Virus record (IMG/VR): IMGVR_UViG_3300042196_000163
Span: 10,030 to 74,029 of that record
Length of the DNA: 64,000 bases
Reading direction: 5' to 3' (one strand)
DNA from: a virus
Taxonomy: Duplodnaviria > Caudoviricetes
This document shows positions 2,359-38,820 of this stretch, piece after piece. How positions within the stretch are numbered: the stretch's first letter is position 1; the number at the start of each line of letters is the position of its first letter. A program made the position numbers and the translations under genes. The notes under the pieces are model-generated. The model did not search any database. It saw nothing but the letters and a program-made list of their open reading frames with translations, and was not told the origin of the DNA.

Positions 2359-2573
2359 TGACCACGTATGTGCTCCGGCTGCTGCGGGATTTGTGCATCA
2401 AGCCGATGCCGCATCTGCAGCGAAAGATGTTCGGCCGTCCGACCGGCAACGAGCCCGGCCGCGGCGGCTCCGGCGCCATCTCGTGCCCGGCCACCCCACC
2501 GGCCGCCGTCGCGCCAGCACCAAAAGCCGCACCGAAACGTCCATTGCCGGCCACCAAGTTTCGCCGCCACTGA
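2358..2573 (+). CDS. Small basic/Pro-rich hypothetical protein
   Basis: TGATG coupling to the upstream gene; 71 aa. Confidence 0.5.
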   Translation: MTTYVLRLLRDLCIKPMPHLQRKMFGRPTGNEPGRGGSGAISCPATPPAAVAPAPKAAPKRPLPATKFRRH

Positions 2574-2642
2574 CCTGCGGCCCGGCCGCTACCCGCAAAT
2601 CCCGACACCGCCAACGCGCCTCTAGGCGCGCAAGGAGAGTCC

Positions 2643-5069
2643 ATGGCCAAGGAACCGCATATCGAAGACGCCAACACCCGGCTGACCGAGACCTTCGATA
2701 CCACGGTCAGGTATTCGCGCTATTTCTCGAAGGGACGCGAGGCGCGCGCGCGGGGCTATCAGAAGATTCTCTACGAGGGCAATGCGGACGTCGCTGAGCC
2801 CGACCCGACGCGCACCGTCATCCTTGAGGCGCTCGCCGCGACGGCGGAGGAGGGCGCCGCGGCCGGCTTCCGCTTCCGCTATCGCACGACCGATGGGCCG
2901 GTCGCGCTTGGCGCCCGCATCCCGTGGGGCGTGGACTCGGATGGCGCCGATCCCGCAGAGCCCGAGGATTTCGTCGACGGCGTGTGGCCGGCCGGCGTCG
3001 CCGTGATCGCGCCGGGCGCCGAGATTTCCGACGAGTTCGGGTTCGGCGCTGTGGCCGATGATCTCGACGAGCTCGCGGAAGGCGCAAAGCTGGTCACGCG
3101 CGAAGGCATCGAGGGCAATGTCCGTCTCGGTGCGGCGAGCACGGCGCTGCTCGTGATCATGGACACGACACCGACGCCAACGCCCCCACCGCCGCCGGAG
3201 CCGCTCCCGGACGTGACCGAGGTCATCAAGCTAGGCACGGTCGACGGCGTGCGCGGGCAGACCTTCGATGGCTCGAAGGCGCCGCAGACCCGCGACGTCG
3301 TCAAATACGCCCAGCCCCGCGCGCATTACAAACTCAATCCTGAGAAGGGCGCCCAGATCGTGGTCGAGGGGCCCGGCTTCATGGACACGCTCAACGACAT
3401 CGAGCGCATCCGCTTCACGGACGGCGACTATGACTGCCTGACCGGCGCCATGGTCGGTGGTGAGCCGGCGCCGCAGCCGGAGCCCGAACCTGAGCCGGAA
3501 CCGGTGCCGGAGCCCCCACCGCCGCCGCCCCCACCGCCGCCGCCAGAGCCGGAACCCGAGCCACCGCCGCCAGTCCCGCAGCCCGCCGGCAGCGTCAGCG
3601 CGCGTCTGAGCAACGGCGTGACGCTGACCGAAGCGGCCCCGCGCAGCGGTGACTGGTCCATGATCGTGCGCCGCGCCAGCGACCGCACGCAGGTCGACCT
3701 CGACTATGCCCGGGCCTTCACCGGGGCCAACGCCAACAGCCCGATCACGGCCTGGTCGGTCTATGACGGCGACACGCTGATCGCAACGGTCAAGGTGCCG
3801 CGCTTCAACTGGCGGGGCCGCTCGCGCTGGGAGAGTGCGCCGGCGCCGTTCACGCGCTCGGTGGACGAAGCCACCGCCCAGGGCTTCTTCGCGAAATATT
3901 CGACGGCCGGGTTCAACAACGTCAACAAGCCGGGCAAAGTCGTTTTCACGCCGATGGGCAATGCCGGCCTGCGGATGAACATGGGCGAGACCGGCGGGCG
4001 CGCCGATATCGGGTTGCTGACCGGCTGGGCATCGGAGTTCCTGGCGACGCGCTCGGCCGACGCGGAAGCCAATATGCGCGCGGTCGCCGAGGCCGCCGGC
4101 TCGATGCCGACCCTGGTGCGCGACGAAAGCACCGGCCGGGCCGTCAGCGTCCTGACCTATCCCAACATCACGAACCAGGAGCTGCGCTTCAACGGCTCGC
4201 CGCGAATGACCTTCGTCGACACCGGCTGGTCGATGGACACCGCGCACTTCCCCGACGTCTCGTACCCGATGGCGGTGCTGACCGGCGACGAATGGCATAT
4301 CGAAAACCTGCAGATGCAGGTGATGGCCTTCTTCGTGAACTCGGACCCGTTCTATCGGGAATCCGGCAAGTGCATCGTGATCCCGCTCCAGGTCCGCCAT
4401 TGGGCCTGGCTGATCCGCCTGATCGCGCGCTGCGCCAAGATCTCGCCGATCGTCGCCACCGGCAACCTGCTGCCGCGCCAATACTTCCTGGACATCCTGG
4501 AAAACAATCGCAAGTGGATCATCGCGAACTACGTCAACAACCTGAACCGGCAGCAGTCGGTCTTCCACGACATCATGGACATGCCGGGCCAGCCGGCCGA
4601 GGGCGGCGCCGACATCCAGGGCTGCTATATCAAGATCTGGCAGGGCTTCTTCTGCGTCCAGGTCTGCGAGGATCTGGTGCGCATGGGCTTCGCAGAATGG
4701 GCGGCGGTCGCGGATTGGTTCCTCGATCCGGTCCTCAAGCGGCTGCTGCCGAACACCGGCTGGAGCCGCGCCTATCCAGGCAACTATCAGGACGTCATCG
4801 GCGTCCGTAGCGGCTCGATCGTCACGATCGTCGGCAGCTACGCCGAGGCCTGGGCGCTGACGAGCAAGAAGTTCGGCCTGGTGGCGCCGGCGAACGACGT
4901 GCTCGGCAGCGGCTACCAGGATTGGAACTATCTCGCCAACGCGCTCGGCGCCGCGACGCTGGCGTCCTATCGCAACGCGCAGGCGAAGCAGGCGGCGGAG
5001 TGGCTGCGGCCGCAGCTGGCGAACTCGCCCTGGGGCGTCGACATGCAGCTCTGCTTCGCGGCGGCATAA
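2643..5069 (+). CDS. Large multidomain virion/surface protein: Calx-beta-like, RTX-associated and Pro/Glu-linker modules plus a putative alpha/alpha lyase-like domain
   Basis: AAGGAGAG RBS. Motifs V.IAPGAEIS..F..VADDLDE.AE, DTLNDIERIRFTDG, PEPEPEP linkers, GGRADIGLLTGW and DTAHFPD. Confidence 0.5.
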   Translation: MAKEPHIEDANTRLTETFDTTVRYSRYFSKGREARARGYQKILYEGNADVAEPDPTRTVILEALAATAEEGAAAGFRFRYRTTDGPVALGARIPWGVDSDGADPAEPEDFVDGVWPAGVAVIAPGAEISDEFGFGAVADDLDELAEGAKLVTREGIEGNVRLGAASTALLVIMDTTPTPTPPPPPEPLPDVTEVIKLGTVDGVRGQTFDGSKAPQTRDVVKYAQPRAHYKLNPEKGAQIVVEGPGFMDTLNDIERIRFTDGDYDCLTGAMVGGEPAPQPEPEPEPEPVPEPPPPPPPPPPPEPEPEPPPPVPQPAGSVSARLSNGVTLTEAAPRSGDWSMIVRRASDRTQVDLDYARAFTGANANSPITAWSVYDGDTLIATVKVPRFNWRGRSRWESAPAPFTRSVDEATAQGFFAKYSTAGFNNVNKPGKVVFTPMGNAGLRMNMGETGGRADIGLLTGWASEFLATRSADAEANMRAVAEAAGSMPTLVRDESTGRAVSVLTYPNITNQELRFNGSPRMTFVDTGWSMDTAHFPDVSYPMAVLTGDEWHIENLQMQVMAFFVNSDPFYRESGKCIVIPLQVRHWAWLIRLIARCAKISPIVATGNLLPRQYFLDILENNRKWIIANYVNNLNRQQSVFHDIMDMPGQPAEGGADIQGCYIKIWQGFFCVQVCEDLVRMGFAEWAAVADWFLDPVLKRLLPNTGWSRAYPGNYQDVIGVRSGSIVTIVGSYAEAWALTSKKFGLVAPANDVLGSGYQDWNYLANALGAATLASYRNAQAKQAAEWLRPQLANSPWGVDMQLCFAAA
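3463..3585 (+). repeat. Low-complexity coding repeat (PEPEPEP...PPPPPPPP)
   Basis: Reiterated ccggag/ccgccg units in frame with the 808-aa ORF. Confidence 0.85.
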
Positions 5070-10888: not shown

Positions 10889-12567
10889 ATCATCTCGGCG
10901 ATTTCCCAGTCGGTGCCACCGTCGACCTGATGTGGAATTCCAACGGGGCCAATGGCGCGAGCATCACGCGCGCCACGGACGGCACCATCAAAATCTACAA
11001 GAACAACTCCGTCACCGAGCGCTCCTCGGCGGCCGGCATCACCGATACCGAGGATTTCGACGCCAACACGGGCGTTCACCATCTCCGCATCAGCCTCTCC
11101 GACAACACCGATTCCGGCTTCTATTCTGCCGGTAGCGAATATCATGTCGTGCTGACCGCTGCGACCATCGACGGTCAGACCGTCAACGCGCATCTGGCGT
11201 CGTTCTCGATCGAGCGGGCCTCCGGCATCCTCGCCGAGATCAAACGCCGCCTCCCGGATGCCGCCTTCAACGCCGCCGGCGGCCTCTCGTCGATGGTTCA
11301 TCGCGCCAGCACGCTGCCGGCGCAGACCGGCGCCAACCCGGCCGTCGGTACCGTCAATCTCGCCGCCGCCGGCATTGGCGCCACGGACGAACTCGTCGGC
11401 CAGTTGCTGGTCATGTTCTCGACCGGCATCACGGTGCGCGGCGTCGGCATCATCACGGCCGCGGACAACGCCAATGATCGCGTCACGCTGAACGGCGGGA
11501 CCGCGCTCACGTTCACGCCCACCGCTGGCGATATCTATGTCGTCCGCACGGATCCCGGCCTGGCCGGCCTCGCCAGCGCCGACGTCGCCTCGGCCGTGCT
11601 CGATGCCGTCGCCGCCAGCTACAACGCGGCCGGCTCGATCGGCGAGGCGATCAACAACGCCGCGGTCGGCGGCGAAGATCCGTCGATCCTGGTGTCGACG
11701 ACGATCGCCACCCTCGCCAGCCAGACATCGTTCACACTGACGGCGGGCAGCGCCGACAATAACGCCTATGTCGATGCGATCGCGGTCGTCACGGATTCGG
11801 TGACGGCGGTGCAGAAGGCGGTCGGCTGGGTCAGCGCCTATACCGGCTCGACCAAGACCGTCACGCTCGCGTTCGATCCCGCGATCTTCACAATGGCCGT
11901 GGGCGACTCCATCAGCATCATCTCGGCCCCCAAGCGCTTGGCGGCCAGCGCCATCGCGGCGGCGAGTTTCCAGGCCAGCGCGATCGATGCCAACGCCATC
12001 GCTTCGAACGCGATCGCCGCGGCCAAGATTGCGACCGGCGCGATCACGAATGCCAAGTTTGCCGCTGGTGCCATCGACAATACCGCCATTGCGGCCAACG
12101 CCATCGCCGCCACCAACATCGCCACTGGTGCCATCACCGCGGCGAAGTTCGCGGCGGGGGCGATTGACGCCGCCGCGATCGCGGACAATGCGATCGATGC
12201 GGGCGCGATTGCCACTGGTGCCATCACCGCGGCGAAGTTCGCCGCCGGCGCCATCGATGCCGCCGCGATTGCAACCGACGCCATCACGGCGGCCAAGATT
12301 GCGGCCGACGCGATCGGCGCCTCGGAATTGGCGGCAGATGCGGCAACCGAGATCGTCACGGCGGTCTTCGCCCGCGCGTTCTCGGCGGCATATGGCAGCT
12401 ACACGTTCGATCAGATGATCGGCATGTTCTCGTCGGTGCTGATCAGCAAGGTCTCCGGCATGGAGACCGGGCTGCCGGTCTTCCGCAACCCCGCTGACAG
12501 CGGCAACGTTGTTTCGGCCGTCACCGATGCCGACGGCAACCGCACGTCGGTCACCCGCACGCCGTAA
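10885..12567 (+). CDS. Minor virion/fibre protein with Ala-rich period-5 repeats
   Basis: AITAAKFAAG/AIDAAAIA repeats; ATGA-coupled. Confidence 0.65.
   Translation: MNHLGDFPVGATVDLMWNSNGANGASITRATDGTIKIYKNNSVTERSSAAGITDTEDFDANTGVHHLRISLSDNTDSGFYSAGSEYHVVLTAATIDGQTVNAHLASFSIERASGILAEIKRRLPDAAFNAAGGLSSMVHRASTLPAQTGANPAVGTVNLAAAGIGATDELVGQLLVMFSTGITVRGVGIITAADNANDRVTLNGGTALTFTPTAGDIYVVRTDPGLAGLASADVASAVLDAVAASYNAAGSIGEAINNAAVGGEDPSILVSTTIATLASQTSFTLTAGSADNNAYVDAIAVVTDSVTAVQKAVGWVSAYTGSTKTVTLAFDPAIFTMAVGDSISIISAPKRLAASAIAAASFQASAIDANAIASNAIAAAKIATGAITNAKFAAGAIDNTAIAANAIAATNIATGAITAAKFAAGAIDAAAIADNAIDAGAIATGAITAAKFAAGAIDAAAIATDAITAAKIAADAIGASELAADAATEIVTAVFARAFSAAYGSYTFDQMIGMFSSVLISKVSGMETGLPVFRNPADSGNVVSAVTDADGNRTSVTRTP
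11930..12340 (+). repeat. Pentapeptide coding repeat including an exact 30-nt duplication
   Basis: gccactggtgccatcaccgcggcgaagttc occurs at 12121-12150 and 12211-12240. Confidence 0.9.
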
Positions 12568-13748: not shown

Positions 13749-13933
13749 CGCCTGATCGGCGTCGAGCACGACCACAGTAGCGCCGCCACCCAGCCCGCCC
13801 CGGTCCAGCCAAGCAGGATGTTCAGCCAGGTGATCGCCGGTCGCTCCGGATGCCCGCGCTGCGCCGCGATGAACGCCGGCAGGAAATAGCAGGCGATGAT
13901 GGCGATGAGAATTGCGACGGCGAGCGGGTCCAT
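13745..13933 (-). CDS. imm: Superinfection immunity protein (T4 Imm-like)
   Basis: YFLPAFIA..RGH..AI..LNILLGWT..GWVAALLWS is the Imm_superinfect signature. Confidence 0.85.
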   Translation of the reverse strand: MDPLAVAILIAIIACYFLPAFIAAQRGHPERPAITWLNILLGWTGAGWVAALLWSCSTPIRR

Positions 13934-13987
13934 GGCGGGTCTCCTTCAGCGTAGTCATAGCAACAACCCGGCGTTGAGGGCAAATCT

Positions 13988-14701
13988 ATGACCCGCACAT
14001 CCCTCGATGCCCTGAAGCAGACGGTCACTGTGACGTGGCCCACGCGCGACAAGGCGCGCGCCAAGGAATTCCTTGTTCGGTTCGCACGCGAAAATACCGC
14101 GCGGATCGTCAACGAGCAGCAGGCCCGCGCCGGCGTTAAACCGGGCGTCGACATGTATGCGAACCAGAAGGGCAACTCGAACCTGCAGAGCGTCGTCCTG
14201 CCGGGTCCGATCATCAGCGACTTCCAATATTTGGGTGAAATCATTCTGGTGACTCTAGGCGCGTTGCGCGCAGCGAGCCCGGTCCGTTCCGGCGCTTATC
14301 GCGATGGGCATCAGATTTTTATCAACGGCGCGCCGGTAGCGACGCTGCCGAATCCGTTGCCGCCTGGGTCAGAAATAATGATCTCAAACACCGTGCCGTA
14401 CGCCAGACGTATCGAGATCGGCAAGACCGCCGCCGGCCGCGCCTTCGTCATCCAGGTTCCGAACCGCATCTATGAGCGCGTCGCCAAGAACATCATCGGC
14501 AAGCGCTACGGAAATATCGCAAAAATTTCGTTCGGTTATGTGACCTTGGGCAGTTCCGGCATTCGTCGCCAGCAACTCTCCAGCCACTACCGGACCGGCA
14601 AGGCGGCCGGCAAGCGCGGCGGCGGCGTTCTCCGCAAACGCCAGCAGCATATCGGCGAGAAAATCCAGGCGCCGGCGATCTTCTTTGAGGCCTTCCGGTG
14701 A
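13988..14701 (+). CDS. Neck/tail-completion protein (HK97 gp10-like)
   Basis: SPVRSGAYRDGH and ISNTVPYARRIEIG motifs. Confidence 0.65.
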   Translation: MTRTSLDALKQTVTVTWPTRDKARAKEFLVRFARENTARIVNEQQARAGVKPGVDMYANQKGNSNLQSVVLPGPIISDFQYLGEIILVTLGALRAASPVRSGAYRDGHQIFINGAPVATLPNPLPPGSEIMISNTVPYARRIEIGKTAAGRAFVIQVPNRIYERVAKNIIGKRYGNIAKISFGYVTLGSSGIRRQQLSSHYRTGKAAGKRGGGVLRKRQQHIGEKIQAPAIFFEAFR

Positions 14702-15123
14702 GCGTCACGACGGTCGAAGCCCTGGCATCAATACGCGCACGGCTGACGGCGAACTTCAGCACCATCACGGTCCTGTGGGATGGCGACAATAACCTCGCCG
14801 CGGTGCCGACGCCGCCGACGCCATGGGCCTTCATGCGCTTCGTCGTCGATCCCGAATCCTTCCTGGCCCATGGCGGCGGTGCCACCAACAACGACTGGCT
14901 CAACGAGGGTTATATCGAGGCGGCCGTGATGACCGACGTGATCGGTGGCGCCGCGGCGGGCATGACGTATGCAGAATCAATCGCCGCCGTCTTCCGCGGC
15001 CAGATATTCGATGGCGTGACCTGCATGGCGGCGACTATCTCATCCGACGGCGAGAAGGATGAGGAAGGTCTGTACCGGATAACTTTTCTCATGATCGACC
15101 TCAAGTTCCACCGCCGCGCCTGA
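14698..15123 (+). CDS. Tail terminator-like protein
   Basis: GTGA overlap; size and position immediately before the tube gene. Confidence 0.6.
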   Translation: MSVTTVEALASIRARLTANFSTITVLWDGDNNLAAVPTPPTPWAFMRFVVDPESFLAHGGGATNNDWLNEGYIEAAVMTDVIGGAAAGMTYAESIAAVFRGQIFDGVTCMAATISSDGEKDEEGLYRITFLMIDLKFHRRA

Positions 15124-15268
15124 TCCATCGCCCGCGTGAGGCCCGCGCGGGAGTTTTCAAAGTCGACCTTGGGCAAGTCGCGCTGCCGCGCGCAAAGCGG
15201 CAATCCACAACCTGAGCCCAACCTGAGCGCCGCGGCGACGCGCGCGCTCTTGTTTATGGAGACATATC

Positions 15269-29896: not shown

Positions 29897-31006
29897 TCAG
29901 GCACTGCGGCGTATCTCGAAGAATCGCCGGACGGCGGCGATGACGTAGTCGACCTGCGCTTGCGTCAACTTCTCGTGGATTGGCAGGCACAGTATGCGCT
30001 GCACCACCTCGCGTCCGATCGGGCATGGCCCCTGCGCCGCACCGGCATATATGGGATGCTCGGGCATCAGGTGCGCATGATAGATCTTAGTTTCGATGCC
30101 CTGGCCGTCGAGCGCGGCCTTGAGCGCATCGCGCTGCGGCGTCTGGATTGTGTAGGTGTAGTACACATTGCGCGTCCCCGGCGGCTCCGGCGGCACCTGA
30201 ACGATGTCGCCCAGCCCGCGGGTATAAGCGCTCGCCACGGCGCGGCGGCGCGCGATCGCGTCTTCGATGCGGCTTAACCGCTGCAGCAGCACGGCCGCCT
30301 GGATCGTGTCCATGCGGCCGTTGAACGTGACCGTCCGGCAGAACTCCTTGTCGAACATGCCGTGATAGCGTAATTCCTCCAGCGCCTGGCGCGTCTTGGC
30401 GTCGTGGCACAGCACGATTCCCGCCTCACCGAATGCGTTGAGCACCTTCATCGGGTTCATGCTGATGCAACCGACCGGCCCGAACGAGCCCGCCTTGCGG
30501 CCATCACGCATAGCGCCGAAGGCGGGGGCGGCATCCTCGATCAGCACCAGGCCGCGTTTGCGCGTGATCGCCTCGATCTGCGCCATCCGGCACATTGCAC
30601 CCGTGAAATGCACCGGCATGATCGCCTTAGTCCGCGCGGTGATCGCGCACTCGGCCGCCGCCGGGTCGATCAACATGTCGTCGCCGATATCGACGAAGAC
30701 CGGCTTTGCGCCGGTCAGGGCCACGCCGCTCGCGGACCCAACGAAAGAGAGCGCTGGCAAGATCACTTCGTCGCCGGCTCCGATGCCGAGGCTGCGCAGG
30801 GCCAGAAACAACGCCGCCGTGCCTGAGCTGACACCGACAGCATAAGGGGTGCCGCAGTAGCGCGCGACCGCCGCCTCGAACTGCGCAAGTTCCGGCCCGT
30901 TGAGGATTCTTCCATGCTGTAGGATGCGATCAATTGCCGCCAGATAGGCGCCGCGCTCCTCCGCCGAATCGACCCGGAGGTCGAGGAAGGGCACGATTAT
31001 CTGCAC
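29897..31006 (-). CDS. DegT/DnrJ/EryC1/StrS family PLP-dependent sugar aminotransferase
   Basis: AVGVSSGTAAL; IMPVHFTG; LIEDAA; SMNPMKVLNAFGEAG (PLP lysine). Confidence 0.95.
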   Translation of the reverse strand: MQIIVPFLDLRVDSAEERGAYLAAIDRILQHGRILNGPELAQFEAAVARYCGTPYAVGVSSGTAALFLALRSLGIGAGDEVILPALSFVGSASGVALTGAKPVFVDIGDDMLIDPAAAECAITARTKAIMPVHFTGAMCRMAQIEAITRKRGLVLIEDAAPAFGAMRDGRKAGSFGPVGCISMNPMKVLNAFGEAGIVLCHDAKTRQALEELRYHGMFDKEFCRTVTFNGRMDTIQAAVLLQRLSRIEDAIARRRAVASAYTRGLGDIVQVPPEPPGTRNVYYTYTIQTPQRDALKAALDGQGIETKIYHAHLMPEHPIYAGAAQGPCPIGREVVQRILCLPIHEKLTQAQVDYVIAAVRRFFEIRRSA

Positions 31007-31213
31007 ATGTGGCCCTTTTGCGTTTCGGATGGCGAGGGTTCCGACTTTCCGTCACCCACAACCCGCCAGCCTGCATCGCGCGCGGATCATGGCCGTCCGC
31101 AACGGCTCTTGCCAGGTTAAGCCGTCAACACCCTACCCAGATTCACCCGTTGAAGCGGTCGGTACGCTGGGCGCGCTGTCACTCCGCCTCGTTGGCCAGG
31201 CGGTGGGCCTTTA

Positions 31214-31402
31214 CTAGACGGTTGCGGCGAGGGCTTTGATCGCCTCTTCGCCGATGCTCTGGAAAATCTCACACCAAATCTCGTCATCGTGAATGCCGAG
31301 CTGGTCATACCGGAAGCCGCGGCGATCATCGAGCGCGCCAAGGTAGATGGCCTTGCCAATGCGGCCCTCGCGCGTCTCGGGCGTGAAATCGTGATAACTC
31401 AT
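31214..31402 (-). CDS. Hypothetical protein (left array, 4th gene)
   Basis: Preceded and followed by the array linker. Confidence 0.65.
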   Translation of the reverse strand: MSYHDFTPETREGRIGKAIYLGALDDRRGFRYDQLGIHDDEIWCEIFQSIGEEAIKALAATV

Positions 31403-31417
31403 CCTTCTCGGCCTTTC

Positions 31418-31654
31418 CTAGATCTTGAACGTTGCTTTGTGGGATGCGACGACATCGGCCGGCGGAACAACTGACCGCGGGTGGTCGTTCCAGCGCCACC
31501 ATTGCCACCACCGGGGCGGCGTCCAGCCACTCAGCAGCGCCAGCCGAAGCACCTGAAACCATCCCTCATGCAGCCGGTCCTCTGGCACGGCATCGCCGAC
31601 GATCTTCGTGTCACCGCTGCGGCTGGACCATCGGAATGAATAGCTGGTGAGCAC
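31418..31654 (-). CDS. Trp-rich hypothetical protein (left array, 3rd gene)
   Basis: GTG start after GGAAAGGCCGCGCC; its TAG lies within the next linker. Confidence 0.65.
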   Translation of the reverse strand: MLTSYSFRWSSRSGDTKIVGDAVPEDRLHEGWFQVLRLALLSGWTPPRWWQWWRWNDHPRSVVPPADVVASHKATFKI

Positions 31655-31673
31655 GGCGCGGCCTTTCCTGTAA

Positions 31674-31925
31674 TTACTCCGGCACCTTGCCGGTTCGTTC
31701 AAAAATCCACTGCTTTGCGGACCAAGCGAATTGAACCCAATAGGCGCTGTGCTTGAGGCCGCCGAGCGAGGCCGCCCCACCAGATTTGATCCTTTCAGCC
31801 GGCGGCACAGGGAAGGGCCCCCAGTCCCAATCGTGGGGAAACGTGGCGTCCGGATCGATGTCGACCGCGGCGCACATGGCACGCGCCAGATCTTCGATCT
31901 TCTTGGGAATGTTCCACTGTTCCAC
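31674..31925 (-). CDS. Hypothetical protein (left array, 2nd gene)
   Basis: GTG start after the identical linker. Confidence 0.65.
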   Translation of the reverse strand: MEQWNIPKKIEDLARAMCAAVDIDPDATFPHDWDWGPFPVPPAERIKSGGAASLGGLKHSAYWVQFAWSAKQWIFERTGKVPE

Positions 31926-31938
31926 GGCGCGGCCTTTC

Positions 31939-32121
31939 CTAGGGCTTCAGGATGCGGTCGAGGTGGGCGGCCGCCTCGTCATGGGTGACATAGCGAGCCA
32001 CCACCTTATTGCCGTGCAACACCTGATATTCCAAACCGCGCTTGGTCTGGCGCGTATAGAGCATATAGGTCCGGGGCGGGCGGCGGGTCTTGGCGGGCCC
32101 GGCTGCAATTTGAGTTTCCAT
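31939..32121 (-). CDS. Hypothetical protein (left array, 1st gene; probably leaderless)
   Basis: ATG lies 7 nt downstream of a -10-like box. Confidence 0.6.
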   Translation of the reverse strand: METQIAAGPAKTRRPPRTYMLYTRQTKRGLEYQVLHGNKVVARYVTHDEAAAHLDRILKP

Positions 32122-32128
32122 GCAACTT

Positions 32129-32156
32129 ACGATACTCCCGGCTTGCATCTTGTCAA
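32129..32156 (-). promoter_or_regulatory. Sigma70-like promoter TTGACA-N16-TATCGT
   Basis: Perfect -35 element; faces the left array. Confidence 0.55.
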
Positions 32157-32171
32157 TAGCGATGTCACACT

Positions 32172-32195
32172 GTGCCACCCAATCAGTTATGGCAC
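32172..32195. promoter_or_regulatory. Inverted repeat GTGCCA-N12-TGGCAC upstream of the recombinase
   Basis: Read directly from the sequence; candidate operator or res-type site. Confidence 0.4.
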
Positions 32196-32204
32196 TTAAT
32201 TCCT

Positions 32205-32756
32205 ATGCGTCGTGGCTATATCCGTGAGAGCCCCCGTCATCCAGCCCGTTACCAGCGCGAAGCCCTTGAGGCGGCTGGCTGTCGGGCTATCTACGAGCAG
32301 AACGGGGAGGCGCTATCCGCGTTCGTCCGTGGCCTGCGCAAGGGCGATATCGTTGTCGTCGACGGGCTGCATCGCCTGGCGGCCACTCGGCCAGACTTCC
32401 ACCGCGCAATACACGCCATCGAAAGGAAGGGCGCGCAGGTGATGGACGCCAGGTCCGGCCAGATCGTTGATTCCAAGTGCGTGGCGCTGGTTGCTGAGGC
32501 CTTTAGCAACATCGCCGGCGAGGCCCGCATCAAGGACGCCGCGGCGCTTGGCGAGCAGGGCGGGCGCCCCAAGATCAAGCTTAAGCGGGATCAGCGCGAG
32601 ATCTGGCGCGATCTCACAATCCCCTCGAATGCGGAGGCGGCTGACATTATCGGCGTCTCGACACGGACGCTCTACCGCCGCTACGGACCATCGGGTCGCC
32701 CGGCCGGTTGGCCGGAGCGGCTGACGACCGGCCGTAAACCCAAACCCTCTAAATAA
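32205..32756 (+). CDS. Small serine recombinase (resolvase/invertase family) with C-terminal HTH
   Basis: GYIRES (catalytic Ser); LRKGDIVVVDGLHRLA; GRPK and AADIIGVSTRTLYR. Confidence 0.85.
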   Translation: MRRGYIRESPRHPARYQREALEAAGCRAIYEQNGEALSAFVRGLRKGDIVVVDGLHRLAATRPDFHRAIHAIERKGAQVMDARSGQIVDSKCVALVAEAFSNIAGEARIKDAAALGEQGGRPKIKLKRDQREIWRDLTIPSNAEAADIIGVSTRTLYRRYGPSGRPAGWPERLTTGRKPKPSK

Positions 32757-32766
32757 GGCGCGGCTG

Positions 32767-33030
32767 ATGGACCTCGAACAGAAAAAGCAGCTGCTGCAGA
32801 ACTGGCGCGGTCGGCGCTTGCTGGCGTGCCGCGCAGCTGACGACTTGTGTGCCGTCGTCGCCGCCCTTGGCATCGAGGATGCGTCCGAGCTGCCGCCAGA
32901 GGGTGGTCCGCGCCCGAAGCCATCCGAGGGCATGATCGCGGAGCTGCAGAACTCGGTTGTCAATGTTAAGCGGCTGATCCTGCTGATCAATGATGGCCAC
33001 GTTTCACGATCGAAGCTCAACGGCTTCTAG
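32767..33030 (+). CDS. Hypothetical protein (right array)
   Basis: Bounded by linkers. Confidence 0.65.
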   Translation: MDLEQKKQLLQNWRGRRLLACRAADDLCAVVAALGIEDASELPPEGGPRPKPSEGMIAELQNSVVNVKRLILLINDGHVSRSKLNGF

Positions 33031-33044
33031 GAAAGGCGCGATTC

Positions 33045-33263
33045 ATGAGCACGAGTGCAGCCCCAAATCAGAACTGCCAATGGTGCGGCCAGCTGCACCC
33101 GGGCGTTGTCTGCTCGCGGATCGCGGCAATTGAGTATCAGCCTGACGGCGTGACGGTGAAGCGGATCGAGTTTCATCCGCCAGCGGCGAATTTCGATCTC
33201 GGCCGCGTTCTCGTCGGTGGACATCAGCGCGTGGTTGGCTTCACCCCCGAATCAGACCTGTAG
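33045..33263 (+). CDS. Small Zn-ribbon-like protein (right array)
   Basis: CQWCGQLHPGVVC; bounded by linkers. Confidence 0.65.
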   Translation: MSTSAAPNQNCQWCGQLHPGVVCSRIAAIEYQPDGVTVKRIEFHPPAANFDLGRVLVGGHQRVVGFTPESDL

Positions 33264-33278
33264 GAAAGGCGCACTTCG

Positions 33279-33515
33279 ATGACTACTTCCGTCACGATCA
33301 AGAACAATGGCCCTTATCGCGTCAACGTGAATGAGGTCGAGCCGGTCGAAGGCCGCCGCCTGGAAGGTGCGGAGCAAACGGTCAACTCGCATTGCCTCGC
33401 CGTCGGCGAGGAGATCACGTTGAATCTCTGGGGTGCTAATCACTATCTATGCGTCATCGAGACAAATGACGTGGATACGCCGGCCGAAAAGCTGGCAGCA
33501 GCGGGCATCCCTTAA
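33279..33515 (+). CDS. Hypothetical protein (right array)
   Basis: Bounded by linkers. Confidence 0.65.
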   Translation: MTTSVTIKNNGPYRVNVNEVEPVEGRRLEGAEQTVNSHCLAVGEEITLNLWGANHYLCVIETNDVDTPAEKLAAAGIP

Positions 33516-33537
33516 TCTCTAGATAAGGCGCGATCCC

Positions 33538-33723
33538 ATGAAAGACATGGCAAAGAATGACTGGCCGCCAAGGGCGAGTGCATCGCGTTTTAGAGATGGA
33601 ACGCAAAGGCGCGGATCGACTGGACAGCTTTGGGAGGCCCGAAACGGTCAATGGCATAGGGTTGACGATCCTGAGCGCGGTCGCCTCGTTCCGCTGCACG
33701 GATCTGGGCCGGATAACATCTAG
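33538..33723 (+). CDS. Hypothetical protein (right array)
   Basis: Bounded by linkers. Confidence 0.6.
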   Translation: MKDMAKNDWPPRASASRFRDGTQRRGSTGQLWEARNGQWHRVDDPERGRLVPLHGSGPDNI

Positions 33724-33736
33724 GAAAGGCGCGCCC

Positions 33737-33994
33737 ATGATCGATATGGCAAAACATCGGCTCGAGCACGGGGATGAGTTCCCCTACGACGCGCCCGACT
33801 TGTGGTGGGGTAGCGACAAGGCCGCGCCCCCGCCGCCGAAGGATTGGGCGCATCGTGCCGCGCGCGGCATCCTGGCCGATCTCGGTGATCGCCACACTAT
33901 CAAGCAGGGCTTCCGCGAGATCGACGAGGAAGTCCGCGCGGAGCTCGTTGAATCGCTGGCGGATATCATCCGCGCAGCTGCACCCTCTAACTAA
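33737..33994 (+). CDS. Hypothetical protein (right array)
   Basis: Bounded by linkers; ARGILADLGDRH motif. Confidence 0.65.
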   Translation: MIDMAKHRLEHGDEFPYDAPDLWWGSDKAAPPPPKDWAHRAARGILADLGDRHTIKQGFREIDEEVRAELVESLADIIRAAAPSN

Positions 33995-34002
33995 GGCGCG
34001 CC

Positions 34003-34140
34003 GTGGGCTACCTCATTCTCCTCGCAACACCGTTGATCGTGTGGCTGGCGGTCTACGTTGTCTTGGTGCTGCCGGCGCGCGAGGATTTCAAGCGCGTCAC
34101 CGGCCGCACGGCTCCGAAGCACTGGCTGTTCCCGTTCTAG
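34003..34140 (+). CDS. 45-aa single-TM protein (right array; absent from the ORF track)
   Basis: GTG after TAAGGCGCGCC; translates MGYLILLATPLIVWLAVYVVLVLPAREDFKRVTGRTAPKHWLFPF. Confidence 0.6.
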   Translation: MGYLILLATPLIVWLAVYVVLVLPAREDFKRVTGRTAPKHWLFPF

Positions 34141-34152
34141 GAAAGGCACGAT

Positions 34153-34347
34153 ATGCCGAGCTGCCTCCGAAACAAGGAATGCTCCTGGTGCGGCCAGCCT
34201 TTGACGCAGGCCGCCAAGGGACATTGCGGCGCGATCTATGATCGCTCGGTGTGTTACTGGGTGCCGGCGATCAAAGAGCACGGGCCGCGCGAGGCTATTA
34301 AGCGGGCGCGGAAAACCGTGCCAGTGCCCGCCGCTCAACCCTCATAG
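34153..34347 (+). CDS. Cys-rich hypothetical protein (right array)
   Basis: CSWCG..C..C pattern; bounded by linkers. Confidence 0.6.
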   Translation: MPSCLRNKECSWCGQPLTQAAKGHCGAIYDRSVCYWVPAIKEHGPREAIKRARKTVPVPAAQPS

Positions 34348-34358
34348 AAAAGGGACCA

Positions 34359-34526
34359 ATGGCGAAGTGCTGCGATTGCGAGCGGGAAAGGCTGGAGGAT
34401 GGCTCGCTCCTCGGCCGCGTGCATTGCTGCTGGCGCTGCTACCAGGCAGTCGAGCAGGGTGCCGCGCCGCAGCACACCCCTGAGTGCGACGCCCGCCACG
34501 CTGCTCGCCAGCAACCCTCTAGGTAA
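34359..34526 (+). CDS. 55-aa Cys-rich protein (right array; absent from the ORF track)
   Basis: MAKCCDC..HCCWRC; bounded by linkers. Confidence 0.55.
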   Translation: MAKCCDCERERLEDGSLLGRVHCCWRCYQAVEQGAAPQHTPECDARHAARQQPSR

Positions 34527-34533
34527 GGAACCA

Positions 34534-35046
34534 ATGCTGGCCGGCTTCAAAACGAAGAACCATCCGCAGCAGGTAAAGACCCGCGGCGCGGATGACGAGG
34601 TCGACCAGCGGATCACGCCGGACTGGCTGTTCCGCGACTATCATGCGCGCTTCAATTTCACGATCGACGTGGCCGCCAACGAGGCCAATAGAAAGCTCGA
34701 TCGACACTACGACCTCGCGGCCAATGGCCTCCGGCAACCGTGGGCGCCTGAGCGCGTCTGGTGCAATCCTCCGTACAGCAATGTGCCGGCGTGGATGTTC
34801 AAGGCTCACCAGGAATTCGAGCGCGGGTGTCCGGTGATCGTCATGCTGCTGCCGTCGAACCGGACCGAACAGAAGTGGTGGCAGCAATTTGTCGAGCCGC
34901 ATCGCGATCGCGCCGGCGGGTTCATGCGCACCGAGTTCCTGTCCAAGCGCATCAACTTCGGCGCGCCCGGCAACGAGGGCGCGGTCTACAACAGCAGCCC
35001 ACCGTTCGGCTTGGTAGCCGTCATCTTCGAAACACCTTCAAGGTAA
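34534..35046 (+). CDS. Phage-type DNA N6-adenine methyltransferase (Dam-like)
   Basis: TPDWLF..FTIDVAA..VWCNPPYS..VMLLPSNRT. Confidence 0.9.
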   Translation: MLAGFKTKNHPQQVKTRGADDEVDQRITPDWLFRDYHARFNFTIDVAANEANRKLDRHYDLAANGLRQPWAPERVWCNPPYSNVPAWMFKAHQEFERGCPVIVMLLPSNRTEQKWWQQFVEPHRDRAGGFMRTEFLSKRINFGAPGNEGAVYNSSPPFGLVAVIFETPSR

Positions 35047-35053
35047 GGAACCG

Positions 35054-36460
35054 ATGATCTACGGCTCAGTCTGCAGCGGCATCGAGGCGGCAACTGCCGC
35101 TTGGCATCCGCTGGGCTGGCGGCCGGCGTTCTTCAGCGAGATCGACAAATTCCCGCGCGCCGTGCTGGCGCACCACTACCCGACCGTGCCGCTGCACGGC
35201 GACTTCACCACGATCGAGGCCGGACAATATGCAGCTATCGATGTTCTCGTCGGAGGCACGCCCTGCCAGTCGTTCAGCATCGCCGGACTCCGCGGCGGAC
35301 TGGCCGATGATCGTGGCAACCTGGCACTCGAATACCTTCGCCTTGCTCAACGCCTTCGGCCCCGCTGGTTGGTTTGGGAGAATGTCCCCGGCGTTCTATC
35401 AAGCCTATCCCATGAAGCGCCCGATCCATGTGCGCCGCCGCCACCAGTGGATATGGAGCTCGACGGACAAGAAGTGGCAACTGAAGACGACTACGGAAGC
35501 GAAGAGCTACACGCCCTCCAGTGCTTCCTGGCCGGAGTTTCAGAACTCGGGTATGGGTGGTCCTACCGGGTATTTGACGCTCAGTTCGCCGGAGTTCCAC
35601 AGCGCCGCCGTCGCGTCTTCGTTGTCGGATATCTTGGAGACTGGCGACCTGCCGCAGCGGTTCTATTTGAGCCCGAAAGCCTGCGCGGGGATCCTGCGCC
35701 TCGCCGAGAAGCGGGGGAAGGAATTGCCGACCCGCTTGCGGCTGGCACTCGCAGCAACGGCGGGTATCGGAACGACGCCGACACCGCAGCGAGCCTTGTC
35801 GCCAGCAATGGCGGACTGAGCGGCAAGGACGATCCCGCCGGCCGCGCCGACGCCGACGGCGGCAATAACAGCTCTGGGCCGATTGATGTCGCGACCGCGC
35901 GCAACGCCCATGCGGGACCGCATGGGCGGCTGGATTTCGAGAGCGAGACGTTCGTGACACATGCGCCGCGCGCCGACGGATTCGATGCGAGCGAGGACGG
36001 GACGGGACGGGGAACGCCACTGTGGCCCGTGTGCTACTCGATCATGCCCATGAACAGCGGCACCGATTACAAGGCGCGCGAGGTTGATGTTGCCCAGCCC
36101 GTGATGGCCGGCGGACCTGTCGGCGGGAATCAGGGCGGCGACTACATCGTGTTCTCGGCCAAGGACCACGGCGCCGATGCGGGCGAGATGTCGCCAACGC
36201 TGCGCGCCGGACCGCACCACAAGTCGCACGCGAATGCCGGGGTCATGCCGGCAGTGCTGTCGCCCGGGATGGCCGTGCGGCGCTTGACGCCACGGGAGTG
36301 CGAGCGCCTGCAGGGCTTCCCCGATGACTACACGCTGATCCCCTATCGCGGCAAGCCGGCGCAGGACTGGCCGCGCTATAAGGCGCTGGGCAACTCGATG
36401 GCGGTGCCGGTCATGCGCTGGATCGGCCAGCGCATCGATCTGGTCAACCGCTGCCTATAA
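35054..36460 (+). CDS. DNA cytosine-C5 methyltransferase
   Basis: SVCSGIEA; GGTPCQSFS; WENVPG; PQRRRRVF; RRLTPRECERLQGFP; YKALGNSMAVPV. Confidence 0.95.
   Translation: MIYGSVCSGIEAATAAWHPLGWRPAFFSEIDKFPRAVLAHHYPTVPLHGDFTTIEAGQYAAIDVLVGGTPCQSFSIAGLRGGLADDRGNLALEYLRLAQRLRPRWLVWENVPGVLSSLSHEAPDPCAPPPPVDMELDGQEVATEDDYGSEELHALQCFLAGVSELGYGWSYRVFDAQFAGVPQRRRRVFVVGYLGDWRPAAAVLFEPESLRGDPAPRREAGEGIADPLAAGTRSNGGYRNDADTAASLVASNGGLSGKDDPAGRADADGGNNSSGPIDVATARNAHAGPHGRLDFESETFVTHAPRADGFDASEDGTGRGTPLWPVCYSIMPMNSGTDYKAREVDVAQPVMAGGPVGGNQGGDYIVFSAKDHGADAGEMSPTLRAGPHHKSHANAGVMPAVLSPGMAVRRLTPRECERLQGFPDDYTLIPYRGKPAQDWPRYKALGNSMAVPVMRWIGQRIDLVNRCL
35229..35819 (+). CDS. Possible overlapping +1-frame ORF inside the C5 methyltransferase
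   Basis: ATG with GAGG 9 nt upstream; contains SLSDILETG..RFYLSPKACAGILR. Confidence 0.35.
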   Translation: MQLSMFSSEARPASRSASPDSAADWPMIVATWHSNTFALLNAFGPAGWFGRMSPAFYQAYPMKRPIHVRRRHQWIWSSTDKKWQLKTTTEAKSYTPSSASWPEFQNSGMGGPTGYLTLSSPEFHSAAVASSLSDILETGDLPQRFYLSPKACAGILRLAEKRGKELPTRLRLALAATAGIGTTPTPQRALSPAMAD

Positions 36461-36472
36461 TTAAGGAGTTCC

Positions 36473-36817
36473 ATGCGCCTCGCTGATCTCGATCCCCGAT
36501 GGCTCCTGCGCGGCGAGGAACGCTGCGGCCTGATCTTCCGTTGCCCGCACTGCCGGAATGTCTGGCTGACCTGCTTCTTTGCGACCTTGCCCAGGGAGGA
36601 GCAGTTCCGCATCTGGGGGAACAACGGCGGCGAGCTCGACGAAGATGGCTGGCCGGAGAAGGGCGACACCGTGGTGTTCTGCAGCCCCAAGGCGAAGTGG
36701 TCGATCATCGCCGGCTCGACGTTCGAGGATCTGAGCGTGACGCCCTCGGTTGATGCCAGCGCATCGGGACACTGGCATGGTCACCTCACTGCCGGCGCGA
36801 TCACCGGCGGGCTATAA
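36473..36817 (+). CDS. DUF6527-like protein (second copy)
   Basis: LIFRCPHC..WS..LSVTPSVD..GHWHGHLTAG. Confidence 0.6.
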   Translation: MRLADLDPRWLLRGEERCGLIFRCPHCRNVWLTCFFATLPREEQFRIWGNNGGELDEDGWPEKGDTVVFCSPKAKWSIIAGSTFEDLSVTPSVDASASGHWHGHLTAGAITGGL

Positions 36818-36831
36818 TTAAGGAGCGTCAG

Positions 36832-37083
36832 GTGACCGACATGATTCAGCGGATCGCGCGGGCGCTTGCTGCCTTACGAAAAGAGGAAGATCGGGCCGCT
36901 GGATTTCCAATCGTTGAGAGCCGATATGCCCCGCCGTTGGCGATGGATATCGGTGCCGCTGAGTGGGCCATTGCAGCGCTCGATCAAGGCGGCTATGTCA
37001 TCGTGCATCGGGACATCAGCCCGTTTAAGACGACAGAGGCCGCAGCGGCGGTCTATGAATCATATCTTAAGATTCGTCGATAG
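36832..37083 (+). CDS. Hypothetical protein (last array gene)
   Basis: GTG after CTATAATTAAGGAG. Confidence 0.55.
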   Translation: MTDMIQRIARALAALRKEEDRAAGFPIVESRYAPPLAMDIGAAEWAIAALDQGGYVIVHRDISPFKTTEAAAAVYESYLKIRR

Positions 37084-37138
37084 GCAGCCCGCGCGCCGAG
37101 GAAAGTCGTTTCCCGAATTCGCCGTCTCAGGTCAAGCG

Positions 37139-37180
37139 AAGGCCGCCGATCCCGGAAGGGGCCGGTGGCCTTTTCGTTTT
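37139..37180 (+). terminator. Intrinsic terminator after the right array
   Basis: aaggccgccg...cggtggcctt stem followed by ttcgtttt. Confidence 0.7.
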
Positions 37181-37309
37181 CCGGCCCCGTGGGCGCCGCT
37201 GCCGCCGCCACCGGTGGGCACTAGGGGCCAGCGCATGGCCCGCGCCAGCGCCCCCGGCGCGGGGCGACGTGGGGCGGTTCAGCGGCACCGGTGCCCGGTC
37301 CCGGAAATC

Positions 37310-37495
37310 CATCCAACTCCGGGCGGGTTTCGGCCGCTTTTATGGGCTGGAAAGTTGGACGGAATGGCGGTTTCCCGCGGGGTAGCAGCGAATTACAAAA
37401 CCGCTGCTCTACCGCTGAGCTAATCCGGCATTTCAAGGACTTAGCATATTTTCGTCCAACTCACTTGGCGGCCGCCAGTTGGATGCGTCCAACTT
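37310..37495. repeat. Five copies of RAGTTGGAYG-like motif (integrase arm-type site candidates)
   Basis: At 37310(-), 37352(+), 37453(-), 37476(+) and 37486(-), flanking the core. Confidence 0.7.
37393..37429 (-). other. attP core: 5' half (37 nt, through the anticodon loop) of tRNA-Thr(UGU)
   Basis: The - strand reads GCCGGAT TA GCTC AGCGGTA GAGC A GCGGT TTTGTAA and then diverges; 31 nt from the integrase stop. Confidence 0.85.
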
Positions 37496-38564
37496 TGTCC
37501 CGCGCGCGGGAGCGTTTTAGCTTGCCCATTGCCGTCTTGGCAAACCGGTCATCGGGCAGGACGTAGACCGACACCACGCCGCGGGTCTTGTGGCCGGTGA
37601 TGGCCCGGATCTCGTCGTCGGTGCAGCCGGCCCGGCCGAGCGCGGTCGCCACGGTGCGGCGCAGATCCGCGAAATGCAGATCCTTGGGCAGCTCGGCCTG
37701 TTCCCGGATCCAGGCGAACCAGTGCTGGAAGTCGCTTTCCTGATAGGCCCGGCCGGTGACCTCGCTGACCACGATCTGGACGGCCGCGGCCTTGGGCGCG
37801 GCGTCGATCGCCTGGCGCAGATCGGGCAGGATCGGAATCAGCATCTCCTTTGCCGTCTTGGCCTGCGTCAGCGCAATGTGCCGGCCTCGGTCGGCCGAGC
37901 GTGGCATGGTGAGAATGTCGCCGGGCCTTTGCCCGGTGCACCACGCCAGCATGACCGCCAGCGCGATCGAGCGGCGGCCCTCCTTTTCGGCCTGGCGACA
38001 GAACGTCACGCGCTCGTTGTCGGTCCACATCCGCGCCCTTGGTTTCGGCGCCTTGATGCGCAGCTTGCGCGCGGGATGGATGTCGATCCAGCCTTCATCC
38101 TCAGCGACGCTCAGCAGCTTGCTCAGCGTGGCGGCGCAGTGCCGTGCCACGTTGGCCCCGCGCTTATTCTTCATCTCCCGCAGCCACGTCTTGACCGATT
38201 TGCGCGTGATCTCCGCGATCGGGATGTCACCGACCCAAGCCTCGACGATAGCCGCATAATATTTATGGTCGCGCTGCGTGCGCGGCTTAAGCGCGTTAAA
38301 GGCTTCGTTTTCCGGGCTCTCGTAAAGTCGCCGGAGCGCCTTGAGCGAGCCCTCCGGTGCCAGCGCCTCGGCCGGTTGGCCGGCGTACCAGCGGTCGAGG
38401 CCGTCGTTCAGATCCTCGGCTTCCTTGATGGCCGCAGCGGGGCTGTCCGACAGGCGCCTGACAAGGAAGCCCGCGGCGACCAGCTTCTCTGTCGGCTGCC
38501 AGTAAAAGGCCGGGCCGCGCCTACGCGGTTTTTCGACCAGGTATCGGACCTTGATTTTTCCCAC
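37461..38564 (-). CDS. int: Tyrosine integrase
   Basis: TGQRPGD (R); TQAKT (K); FADLRRT; TGHKT; SVYV (Y). GTG start inferred at 38564. Confidence 0.92.
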   Translation of the reverse strand: MGKIKVRYLVEKPRRRGPAFYWQPTEKLVAAGFLVRRLSDSPAAAIKEAEDLNDGLDRWYAGQPAEALAPEGSLKALRRLYESPENEAFNALKPRTQRDHKYYAAIVEAWVGDIPIAEITRKSVKTWLREMKNKRGANVARHCAATLSKLLSVAEDEGWIDIHPARKLRIKAPKPRARMWTDNERVTFCRQAEKEGRRSIALAVMLAWCTGQRPGDILTMPRSADRGRHIALTQAKTAKEMLIPILPDLRQAIDAAPKAAAVQIVVSEVTGRAYQESDFQHWFAWIREQAELPKDLHFADLRRTVATALGRAGCTDDEIRAITGHKTRGVVSVYVLPDDRFAKTAMGKLKRSRARDKVGRIQLAAAK

Positions 38565-38820
38565 GCGCGCGCTCCAGCAGCTCGGCCTCGAAGTCGCGCT
38601 TTTCCCCGGGAGGGCATTCCAGCCCGTAGCGGCGCGCGAGCCACGCGTCAACCTGTGCTTTCGAAAACGTGTTGTAAACGGCGTCGGGCCTGGGGAAATC
38701 GGGGATAGCGGGGATATGTCCACGCAACCAGGACTCGCTGCGCCGAAATGCGTATTCCGCCGCCTCGGCCCACGTCATGGTGGCCGGCTCGAAACGGTGG
38801 CGGTGGCGGCGCGCAGTCAT
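38521..38820 (-). CDS. Excisionase-like winged HTH protein
   Basis: MTWAEAAEY..SESWLR..FPRP..FSKAQVDAWL; overlaps the int start. Confidence 0.7.
   Translation of the reverse strand: MTARRHRHRFEPATMTWAEAAEYAFRRSESWLRGHIPAIPDFPRPDAVYNTFSKAQVDAWLARRYGLECPPGEKRDFEAELLERARGKNQGPIPGRKTA

Follow-up and report, generated by a model that had tools for sequence, protein, structure and literature searches.

Short junction units at the gene borders of a two-arm accessory-gene array in a temperate tailed phage and their probable part in single-gene exchange

The virus record IMGVR_UViG_3300042196_000163, a single record of 74,029 bp, is that of a temperate tailed phage, as demonstrated by gene calls and family scans. 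Within the window, i.e., the whole 64,000-nucleotide (nt) stretch analyzed here, the positions of which are used throughout, it carries at 31204-37083 an array of genes joined by copies of one short unit. The locus raised the question of what this unit serves: a signal for the ribosome, a site for a recombinase, or a stretch of homology along which genes are exchanged. A preliminary description of the locus had proposed a plug-in cassette platform, in which a serine recombinase swaps genes at the units and flips the central block between the two arms.

We favor, with a probability of roughly 0.6, a junction for translational restart that doubles as short homology for the in-register exchange of single genes by general recombination. 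The array would then be a hypervariable accessory-gene module of the phage, placed between the late genes and the putative attP/integrase, with two divergent operons expressed from one control region and probably regulated by a resolvase-derived helix-turn-helix (HTH) protein, much as Tn3 resolvase acts at res. The anatomy of the junction suggests that it lets ribosomes restart on the next gene, and the unit, as the only sequence common to otherwise unrelated genes, would offer the short homology for replacement, duplication, or loss of a single gene. General recombination might proceed via the RecT-type annealing protein of the phage or via host functions. Because the junction variants are position- and arm-specific, the exchange between phages would take place in register and within one arm, and as an outcome, otherwise unrelated phages would have a common pool of small genes, probably counter-defence ones.

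The array comprises 17 open reading frames (ORFs), four leftward and 13 rightward (the resolvase-like head gene included), and all of them show the coding-type pattern of GC content at the three codon positions (GC1/2/3). The unit is 16-20 nt long and was found in 15 copies, one at each of the 15 internal gene borders, plus one orphan copy. Each copy holds the final 1-2 codons of the gene upstream and its stop, TAG or TAA; a ribosome site of AAGG type comes next, and a short GC tail, 2-8 nt ahead of the following start codon, completes it. When aligned on the invariant AAGG, the units are conserved from -8 nt to +4 nt of this motif. Their position in the reading frame varies relative to the upstream stop: the conserved TCTA(G/A) contains the stop codon in some units and is read as sense codons in others, with the stop 3 bases further. 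The units are asymmetric, keep a fixed orientation to transcription, and occupy the ribosome-site position; no dyad-symmetric recombinase-type site or paired half-sites were detected in them.

The unit is a property of the array. Its 10-mer core, with at most one mismatch allowed, occurs 10 times in the 64-kb window against 1.57 expected (about six-fold over shuffles), a count reached by none of the 100 shuffles, and eight of the 10 matches lie in 31207-34147. The 15 junctions gave a 16-nt weight matrix (18.3 bits) that was scanned across the 74-kb genome; a score of at least 12 bits was reached at 16 sites, every one in 31204-36827, the sixteenth being the orphan copy. Leave-one-out scores ranged from 7 to 23, while the top score outside the array was 10.5 and the top ordinary gene start scored 9.6. 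The way the genes follow one another is also distinctive: 14 of the 15 gaps in the array measure 6-20 nt and no genes overlap, whereas 40 of the 87 same-strand neighbors in the rest of the phage do. None of the 17 array ORFs ends in TGA, in comparison to 66 of 99 elsewhere in the phage (P=1e-7). The observational part of the preliminary description holds: all five of its quoted linkers lie where it had placed them, the count of about 17 cassettes (four leftward and 12-13 rightward) was right, and the linker is absent from the overlapping operons elsewhere. The matrix scan it had called for showed that the unit is not just a strong Shine-Dalgarno site.

The predicted pairing with 16S rRNA, computed for an alphaproteobacterial 16S tail, was average (about -7.3 kcal/mol at the junctions vs. 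-7.2 kcal/mol elsewhere in the phage), and unit conservation is therefore not explained by the strength of the ribosome site. The unit extends into the upstream coding sequence, and five of the 13 right-arm proteins end in Pro-Ser or Pro-Ser-x (PS/PSx) as compared with none of the 99 proteins elsewhere (dipeptide frequency 0.003). Two genes are bracketed by matching units: a GAACC unit stands on either side of the Dam-type methyltransferase gene, and a GAG-type unit on either side of the DUF6527 gene.

Relatives of the array were reached by way of proteins homologous to the head protein, whose family has 964 representatives at E<1e-10, or to two of the cargo proteins. Nine contigs were long enough and represented eight distinct arrays (L003, L004, L005, L008, L010, L011/L012 from the same phage, L013, and L029). 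All eight have the same layout: small genes follow a resolvase-family head gene rightward in one arm, and those of the opposite arm run divergently to the left; the gaps are mostly 8-15 nt, and the usual site is between late/lysis genes and the lysogeny/early region. The cargo is nearly all unrelated between the arrays. The window matrix detected seven junctions in L003, 14 in L029, and 0-1 per control locus. Besides the array, the window phage is unrelated to L003 and L029 even at the protein level, save for a weak cro-like match to L029.

The few genes that are shared show where homology between the arrays begins and ends. The window and L003 arrays have only two genes in common. The head genes (70.5% nt identity) are homologous up to 32762, where unit 1 ends, and the DUF6527 genes (95.8% nt identity) from 36471, immediately behind unit 11, as far as the 3' edge of unit 12. 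Two genes only, gene 5 and the Dam-type gene, are likewise shared with L029. Homology of gene 5 (33547-33726 in the window, 8500-8679 in L029; 88.9% nt identity) ends within unit 5. For the Dam-type gene (95% identity at the amino acid level, 89.8% nt), it begins within unit 9 at 34524 and fades in the last four codons; here L029 has another unit variant and still encodes a Pro-Ser-x end. All homology of shared cargo ends in a unit or at the start codon. The phage represented by L011/L012 contains a dispersed single-gene duplicate of 238 nt (97.5% identical), the identity of which starts and stops in the flanking units. Finally, the flanks of L003 and L029 are 69-85% identical on both sides of arrays that share one 21-nt unit only, and on the L003 side, the flanks become homologous again directly behind the last unit. 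The bases there were also considered as a remnant of the last gene of the window array, which was rejected, since by alignment they are the conserved flank shared with L029. The expectation that aligned relatives would reveal changes of gene content at the linkers was therefore borne out.

Junction types follow the arm. AGGCC junctions made up 28 of 44 in the left arms and none of 59 in the right arms (P=3e-14), and AGGAG junctions two of 44 and 35 of 59, respectively (P=2e-9), the counts coming from arrays with different genes and not being phylogenetically independent. All six cargo families common to several arrays keep to the same arm. In the right arms of the window, L003, and L029, the tail variants follow one order (GCGCG, GCACG, GGACC, GAACC, GAG) with differing copy numbers; Kendall tau was 0.76 for L029 (P=0.0015) and 0.97 for L003 (P=0.007). 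Unit 1 is identical in L029 and has one mismatch in L003, and unit 4 is identical at 16 of 16 positions to the first unit of L003. The L029 head protein is only 33% identical to that of the window and their genes have no nucleotide similarity, yet the next unit and the codons preceding it are identical. Orphan units also close the left arms of L003 and L029. The possibility that the variant order follows a gradient in the strength of the ribosome site was rejected (Spearman 0.08, 0.20, and -0.3, none significant). The shared order, together with the lack of a pairing-energy trend along the arms, is read as an inherited scaffold kept by in-register exchange. The drift of the linker along the array noticed earlier is real, but serial local acquisition is not supported as its cause, as the same order recurs in three phages.

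The features of the array are listed below; genes without other stated evidence were called as ORFs with the coding-type GC1/2/3 pattern, and the scores are those of the weight matrix.

31204-31219 (-): orphan junction unit behind the last leftward gene, with no gene after it; score 14.4
31214-31402 (-): leftward gene 4, 62 aa; no Pfam/PHROG match
31408-31423 (-): junction unit of left-arm type, tail GCCGA; score 18.4
31418-31654 (-): leftward gene 3, 78 aa; start codon GTG at 31654, set behind the unit
31658-31673 (-): junction unit of left-arm type, tail GCCGC; score 15.4
31674-31925 (-): leftward gene 2, 83 aa
31929-31944 (-): junction unit of left-arm type, tail GCCGC; score 16.7
31939-32121 (-): leftward gene 1, 60 aa; mRNA probably leaderless, with a promoter-like site close to the ATG
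32122-32204 (no strand): divergent control region with overlapping -35 hexamers and an inverted repeat
32205-32756 (+): resolvase/invertase-like HTH head gene, 183 aa, no Shine-Dalgarno; PF00239, 25.2 bits
32747-32762 (+): junction unit 1, tail GCGCG; score 22.2; its first 6 nt are head-gene codons
32767-33030 (+): right-arm gene 2, 87 aa, no family
33025-33040 (+): junction unit 2, GCGCG; score 23.9
33045-33263 (+): right-arm gene 3, 72 aa, one CxxC motif
33258-33273 (+): junction unit 3; score 19.7
33279-33515 (+): right-arm gene 4, 78 aa
33517-33532 (+): junction unit 4, GCGCG; score 22.8; 1 nt past the gene 4 stop
33538-33723 (+): right-arm gene 5, 61 aa; common to L029, ORF intact in both
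33718-33733 (+): junction unit 5, GCGCG; score 22.6
33737-33994 (+): right-arm gene 6, 85 aa, C-terminus PSN
33985-34000 (+): junction unit 6, GCGCG; score 20.0
34003-34140 (+): right-arm gene 7, 45 aa, hydrophobic, probably membrane
34135-34150 (+): junction unit 7, GCACG; score 23.7
34153-34347 (+): right-arm gene 8, 64 aa, Cys-rich, C-terminus PS
34342-34357 (+): junction unit 8, GGACC; score 15.4
34359-34526 (+): right-arm gene 9, 55 aa, Cys-rich, C-terminus PSR
34517-34532 (+): junction unit 9, GAACC; score 22.4
34534-35046 (+): phage Dam-type N6-adenine DNA methyltransferase, 170 aa, C-terminus PSR; PF05869, E=1.9e-21
35037-35052 (+): junction unit 10, GAACC; score 18.9
35054-36460 (+): C5-cytosine DNA methyltransferase, 468 aa; PF00145, E=1.6e-46
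36455-36470 (+): junction unit 11, GAG type; score 16.1
36473-36817 (+): BubE/DUF6527 homologue, 114 aa; homologues carry PF20137
36812-36827 (+): junction unit 12, GAG type; score 20.6
36832-37083 (+): last right-arm gene, 83 aa
37140-37180 (+): intrinsic terminator closing the right arm before the integrase; hairpin of -33.1 kcal/mol (z=-3.5), then a U run

Several points weigh against exchange by recombination at the units. No recombinant molecule was seen: one sequencing run, the likely source, was found as contigs, and none of its listed joints (low depth, sides of 21-35 nt) lies at a unit, although such joints are uninformative on rearrangement either way. The identity offered by the units extends over 11-20 nt, a short length for homologous exchange to be efficient. 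Outside the junctions the array has no intergenic DNA; viable breakpoints must therefore fall within them, and from their position alone, recombination at the units cannot be told from random recombination with later selection. The breakpoints examined number only about nine. The arm-specific types persisting in distant phages could also reflect some other, unknown function.

The best of the alternatives we consider distinctly less probable but worth keeping in mind. The unit might be a purely regulatory or translation signal, similar to the start-associated sequences (SAS) of cluster K mycobacteriophages and read by an unknown protein or RNA differently in each arm, whereas illegitimate recombination would occur anywhere and only the products broken at junctions would survive. 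The fixed orientation of the units at the ribosome-site position agrees with such a role, as do the persistence of arm-specific types among phages with no more than 40-45% identity between their head proteins and the identity of the unit behind the dissimilar head genes of the window and L029. The SAS described in the literature follow this pattern as well, and no function has yet been assigned to them (PMC3203893). Left unexplained are the matching pairs of flanking units, the shared PS/PSx tails, the orphan units, and the common order of variants, which are hard to derive from selection on translation signals alone. Moreover, the head protein is the only conserved candidate for the reading factor, and the unit type does not follow it; the units as binding sites of the head protein are disfavored for this reason.

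A bolder form of the exchange hypothesis, which we regard as rather doubtful, takes the junction variants for a positional address code, in which an inherited scaffold of slightly differing units would hold recombination between unrelated temperate phages in register and inside one arm, and the array for a dedicated exchange platform through which a phage community would share single counter-defence genes, possibly helped by RecT or by the resolvase-derived protein. If true, such a platform would be a functional integron analogue made of translation junctions.

Very improbable is the site-specific cassette platform, a serine-recombinase analogue of the integron, in which the resolvase-like protein cuts and rejoins DNA at the units and also flips the arms. 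A resolvase-family gene does stand at the head of every array seen. The family profile of the window head protein matched the Gin invertase (4m6f) with E=5e-17 over positions 2-168 (E=9e-4 for the single sequence); by its sequence, the protein is a true full-length homologue of small serine recombinases, with the catalytic domain, the E-helix, and a C-terminal HTH. In addition, the head gene of L008 is a canonical resolvase (155 bits), and in the window, L003, and L029, both arms have an 11-nt inverted core in common. However, the catalytic Asp is replaced by His and one Arg is lost in the window family (motif His-Arg-Leu-Ala-Ala), the SG...RP loop is deleted in the Gin alignment, and the nucleophile position, Ser9 in the window protein, is occupied by Ser or Thr across 30 relatives. 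The roles of the catalytic Asp-Arg...Arg residues and of the SG...RP loop are those known from the work on Tn3/gamma-delta. Key catalytic residues are missing, and the head protein is more likely a regulator than a recombinase. The units themselves lack paired half-sites, the arms of distant arrays share AAGG only, no cargo family crosses between the arms (0 of 6), and the unit type is independent of head-protein kinship, as seen in L029. Altogether, the linker specificity, the gene turnover at junctions, and the cargo profile claimed in the preliminary description stand, while the swapping by a recombinase, the flipping between arms, and the serial acquisition are not supported.

An ordinary strong Shine-Dalgarno site or chance resemblance is refuted: despite AAGG at ribosome-site distance in all units, the matrix is silent at the other ~95 gene starts, the pairing energy is average, shuffles never reach the observed count, and the same unit occurs in two independent metagenomic phages.

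Between the two arms lies the divergent control region. The ATG of leftward gene 1 stands 7 nt beyond the end of a promoter-like site at 32156-32129 (TTGACA and TATCGT, spaced by 16 nt), and the -35 hexamers of two divergent promoters overlap on opposite strands. An inverted repeat at 32172-32195, with 6-nt arms and a 12-nt gap, ends 9 nt before the head-gene ATG, and its right half-site recurs ahead of the head gene in five of the eight related loci. By analogy with Tn3 resolvase at res, we infer that the head protein may regulate both arms. Both leftward gene 1 and the head gene are devoid of a ribosome site and leaderless in appearance. The repeat ahead of the head gene was inspected by eye as a sigma-54 promoter and rejected in view of no -12 element and no room for a leader. 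In a separate observation, the 277-aa head protein of the L011/L012 phage (L011 8001-8834, L012 2656-3489) was found to carry an additional C-terminal T5orf172/MUG113 (GIY-YIG-related) domain, which several other members of the head family (257-311 aa) may have too.

Among the window cargo, a Dam-type methyltransferase, a C5 methyltransferase, and a BubE/DUF6527 homologue were identified, the last confirmed through its homologues; Pfam and PHROG gave nothing for the 13 small cargo genes. The two methyltransferases and DUF6527 had been named in the preliminary description, and the profile fits anti-defence. BubE/DUF6527 has lately been demonstrated to be a Ser-His protease that belongs to the ubiquitination-like operons of bacteria (bioRxiv 10.1101/2024.11.21.623953), and the phage protein may cleave host ubiquitin-like conjugates as counter-defence. 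Stand-alone homologues were noticed in three arrays (window 36473-36817, L003 12104-12448, and L008 8001-8312). The L008 cargo includes an Acb2/Tad1-hairpin protein (E=1e-7) and a MazG domain besides the DUF6527 protein; a precomputed AcrVA2-like label in this array was not reproduced with Pfam. Judged from these family assignments, an anti-defence role of the array cargo is plausible. The nucleotide search of cultured phages gave matches to methyltransferases only. The C5 methyltransferase gene is 78% identical (nt) to a gene of the Caulobacter phage DMCA, where it sits among overlapping genes without junction units; this likeness hints at an alphaproteobacterial host.

The surroundings of the array are those of a prophage end. 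The late genes, including that of the tape-measure protein, occupy the plus strand up to ~29 kb and are followed by a methyltransferase and a DegT-type aminotransferase gene (29.1-31.0 kb). To the right of the array, a strong terminator precedes the tyrosine integrase gene (37464-38723, minus strand), beyond which lie a leftward early operon with a RecT-family gene and TnpB and a rightward operon with DnaB. A position between the late genes and the putative attP/integrase is the usual spot for accessory cargo. Contigs of the likely source run break at 37394-37422, in the putative attP region, and at 35632-35650, inside the C5 methyltransferase gene; the former may reflect integrated and free phage forms in the sample, and the latter related methyltransferase genes of other organisms.

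Other searches for related loci were less productive. Single-protein and alignment scans revealed no array relatives, only a 14-residue stretch, a C-terminal piece of 41% identity, and a match of 27% identity on a 2-kb contig, and the exact search of IMG/VR for the shared promoter stretch gave no match. The unit pattern search of IMG/VR yielded 13 loci, none with array-like clustering (11 with at most one match, two with weak extra matches). Seven of them (L016, L017, L019, L022, L023, L026, and L027; GC-rich) represent one phage family with a single conserved left-arm-type junction and the same start of the next gene. Two array genes of L029 (7375-7563 and 8492-8677) are uncalled in the public gene set, the second being the homologue of window gene 5. 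Three transposase genes, two of IS1595 type and one of ISL3 type, were found near the L008 array (2333-3277, 11743-12489, and 13839-15182), one ~1.3 kb past the left arm, one ~0.7 kb past the right end, and one further downstream.

How does the array compare with known systems? The integron resembles it in promoter-less single-gene cassettes behind a common promoter, a recombinase-family neighbor, and a repeat at the 3' end of the cassette. However, the array has no IntI-type tyrosine recombinase or attI, its head gene being resolvase-like; the sole tyrosine recombinase (37464-38723) lies beyond the terminator and serves the putative attP. Nor are there attC hairpins, which are imperfect inverted repeats of ~60-140 nt, the gaps here being 7-22 nt and the units asymmetric 16-mers. 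Unlike in the integron, exchange in the array most likely relies on general recombination. The Tn3/gamma-delta resolvase acts as a repressor at res between divergent genes, and here also a small resolvase-family protein lies beside a divergent promoter region with an inverted repeat; the differences are its degenerate catalytic residues and the lack of a transposase partner, and repression in the array is proposed by analogy.

The SAS of cluster K mycobacteriophages are short asymmetric repeats, present in one orientation a few nt before the starts of non-structural genes only, with a ribosome-site core, conserved bases unable to pair with 16S rRNA, and sometimes the upstream stop; they are conserved in related phages ahead of different genes (Pope et al. 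2011, PMC3203893). The array units are likewise asymmetric, in one orientation, 3-8 nt before the starts of non-structural genes, and conserved beyond 16S pairing. They differ in their consensus, which is not the 13-nt SAS consensus, and in the host clade; they are also confined to one compact two-arm module, are arm- and position-specific, and extend into the upstream coding sequence. Single-gene exchange at the array units is documented, and inverted repeats of the ESAS kind are absent.

The promoter-early stem-loop (PeSL) elements of T4-type phages, of ~100 bp, contain a promoter and a terminator that make each gene its own transcription unit, and mini-circles were demonstrated for them (Arbiol et al. 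2010, PMC2839356). The array shares with them regulatory elements that recur between the orphan genes of hyperplastic regions, gain, loss, and replacement at the elements, and the loss or gain of genes flanked by two copies. The array unit, with its 16-20 nt, is too short to hold a promoter or terminator and acts at the level of translation inside polycistronic operons, and no mini-circles are demonstrated. The scan of 30900-37500 found one promoter-like site, that of the divergent control region, and terminator-like sites did not exceed those in shuffled sequences.

The modular theory of phage evolution, as summarized in PMC3029335, assumes that homologous recombination occurs at gene borders by way of short conserved sequences, and such boundary sequences are not findable at most mosaic borders (PMC3029335). 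In the array, a short sequence is shared at the borders of unrelated genes in several phages and homology breaks there; what differs is that the unit stands at every border of a 17-gene block and is common to otherwise unrelated phages. An old idea short of clear examples has thereby gained a whole block that carries the unit: in two independent phages the same units recur in the same order around other genes, and where a gene is shared, which is rarely the case, its homology stops in the units. The array offers a compact natural system for studying how single accessory, probably counter-defence, genes move between phages, and a rule for finding such genes in metagenomes (a resolvase-like head gene followed by standard junctions). 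It also suggests a natural standard connector for the assembly of polycistronic genes in GC-rich hosts.

Altogether, the array is nearest to SAS in form and to PeSL in evolutionary behavior, is a clear instance of the boundary-sequence idea, and is not an integron. What is new is that a two-arm module around a resolvase-derived gene is conserved, that the junction types are specific to the arm, and that position-specific variants are common to three phages with different cargo.

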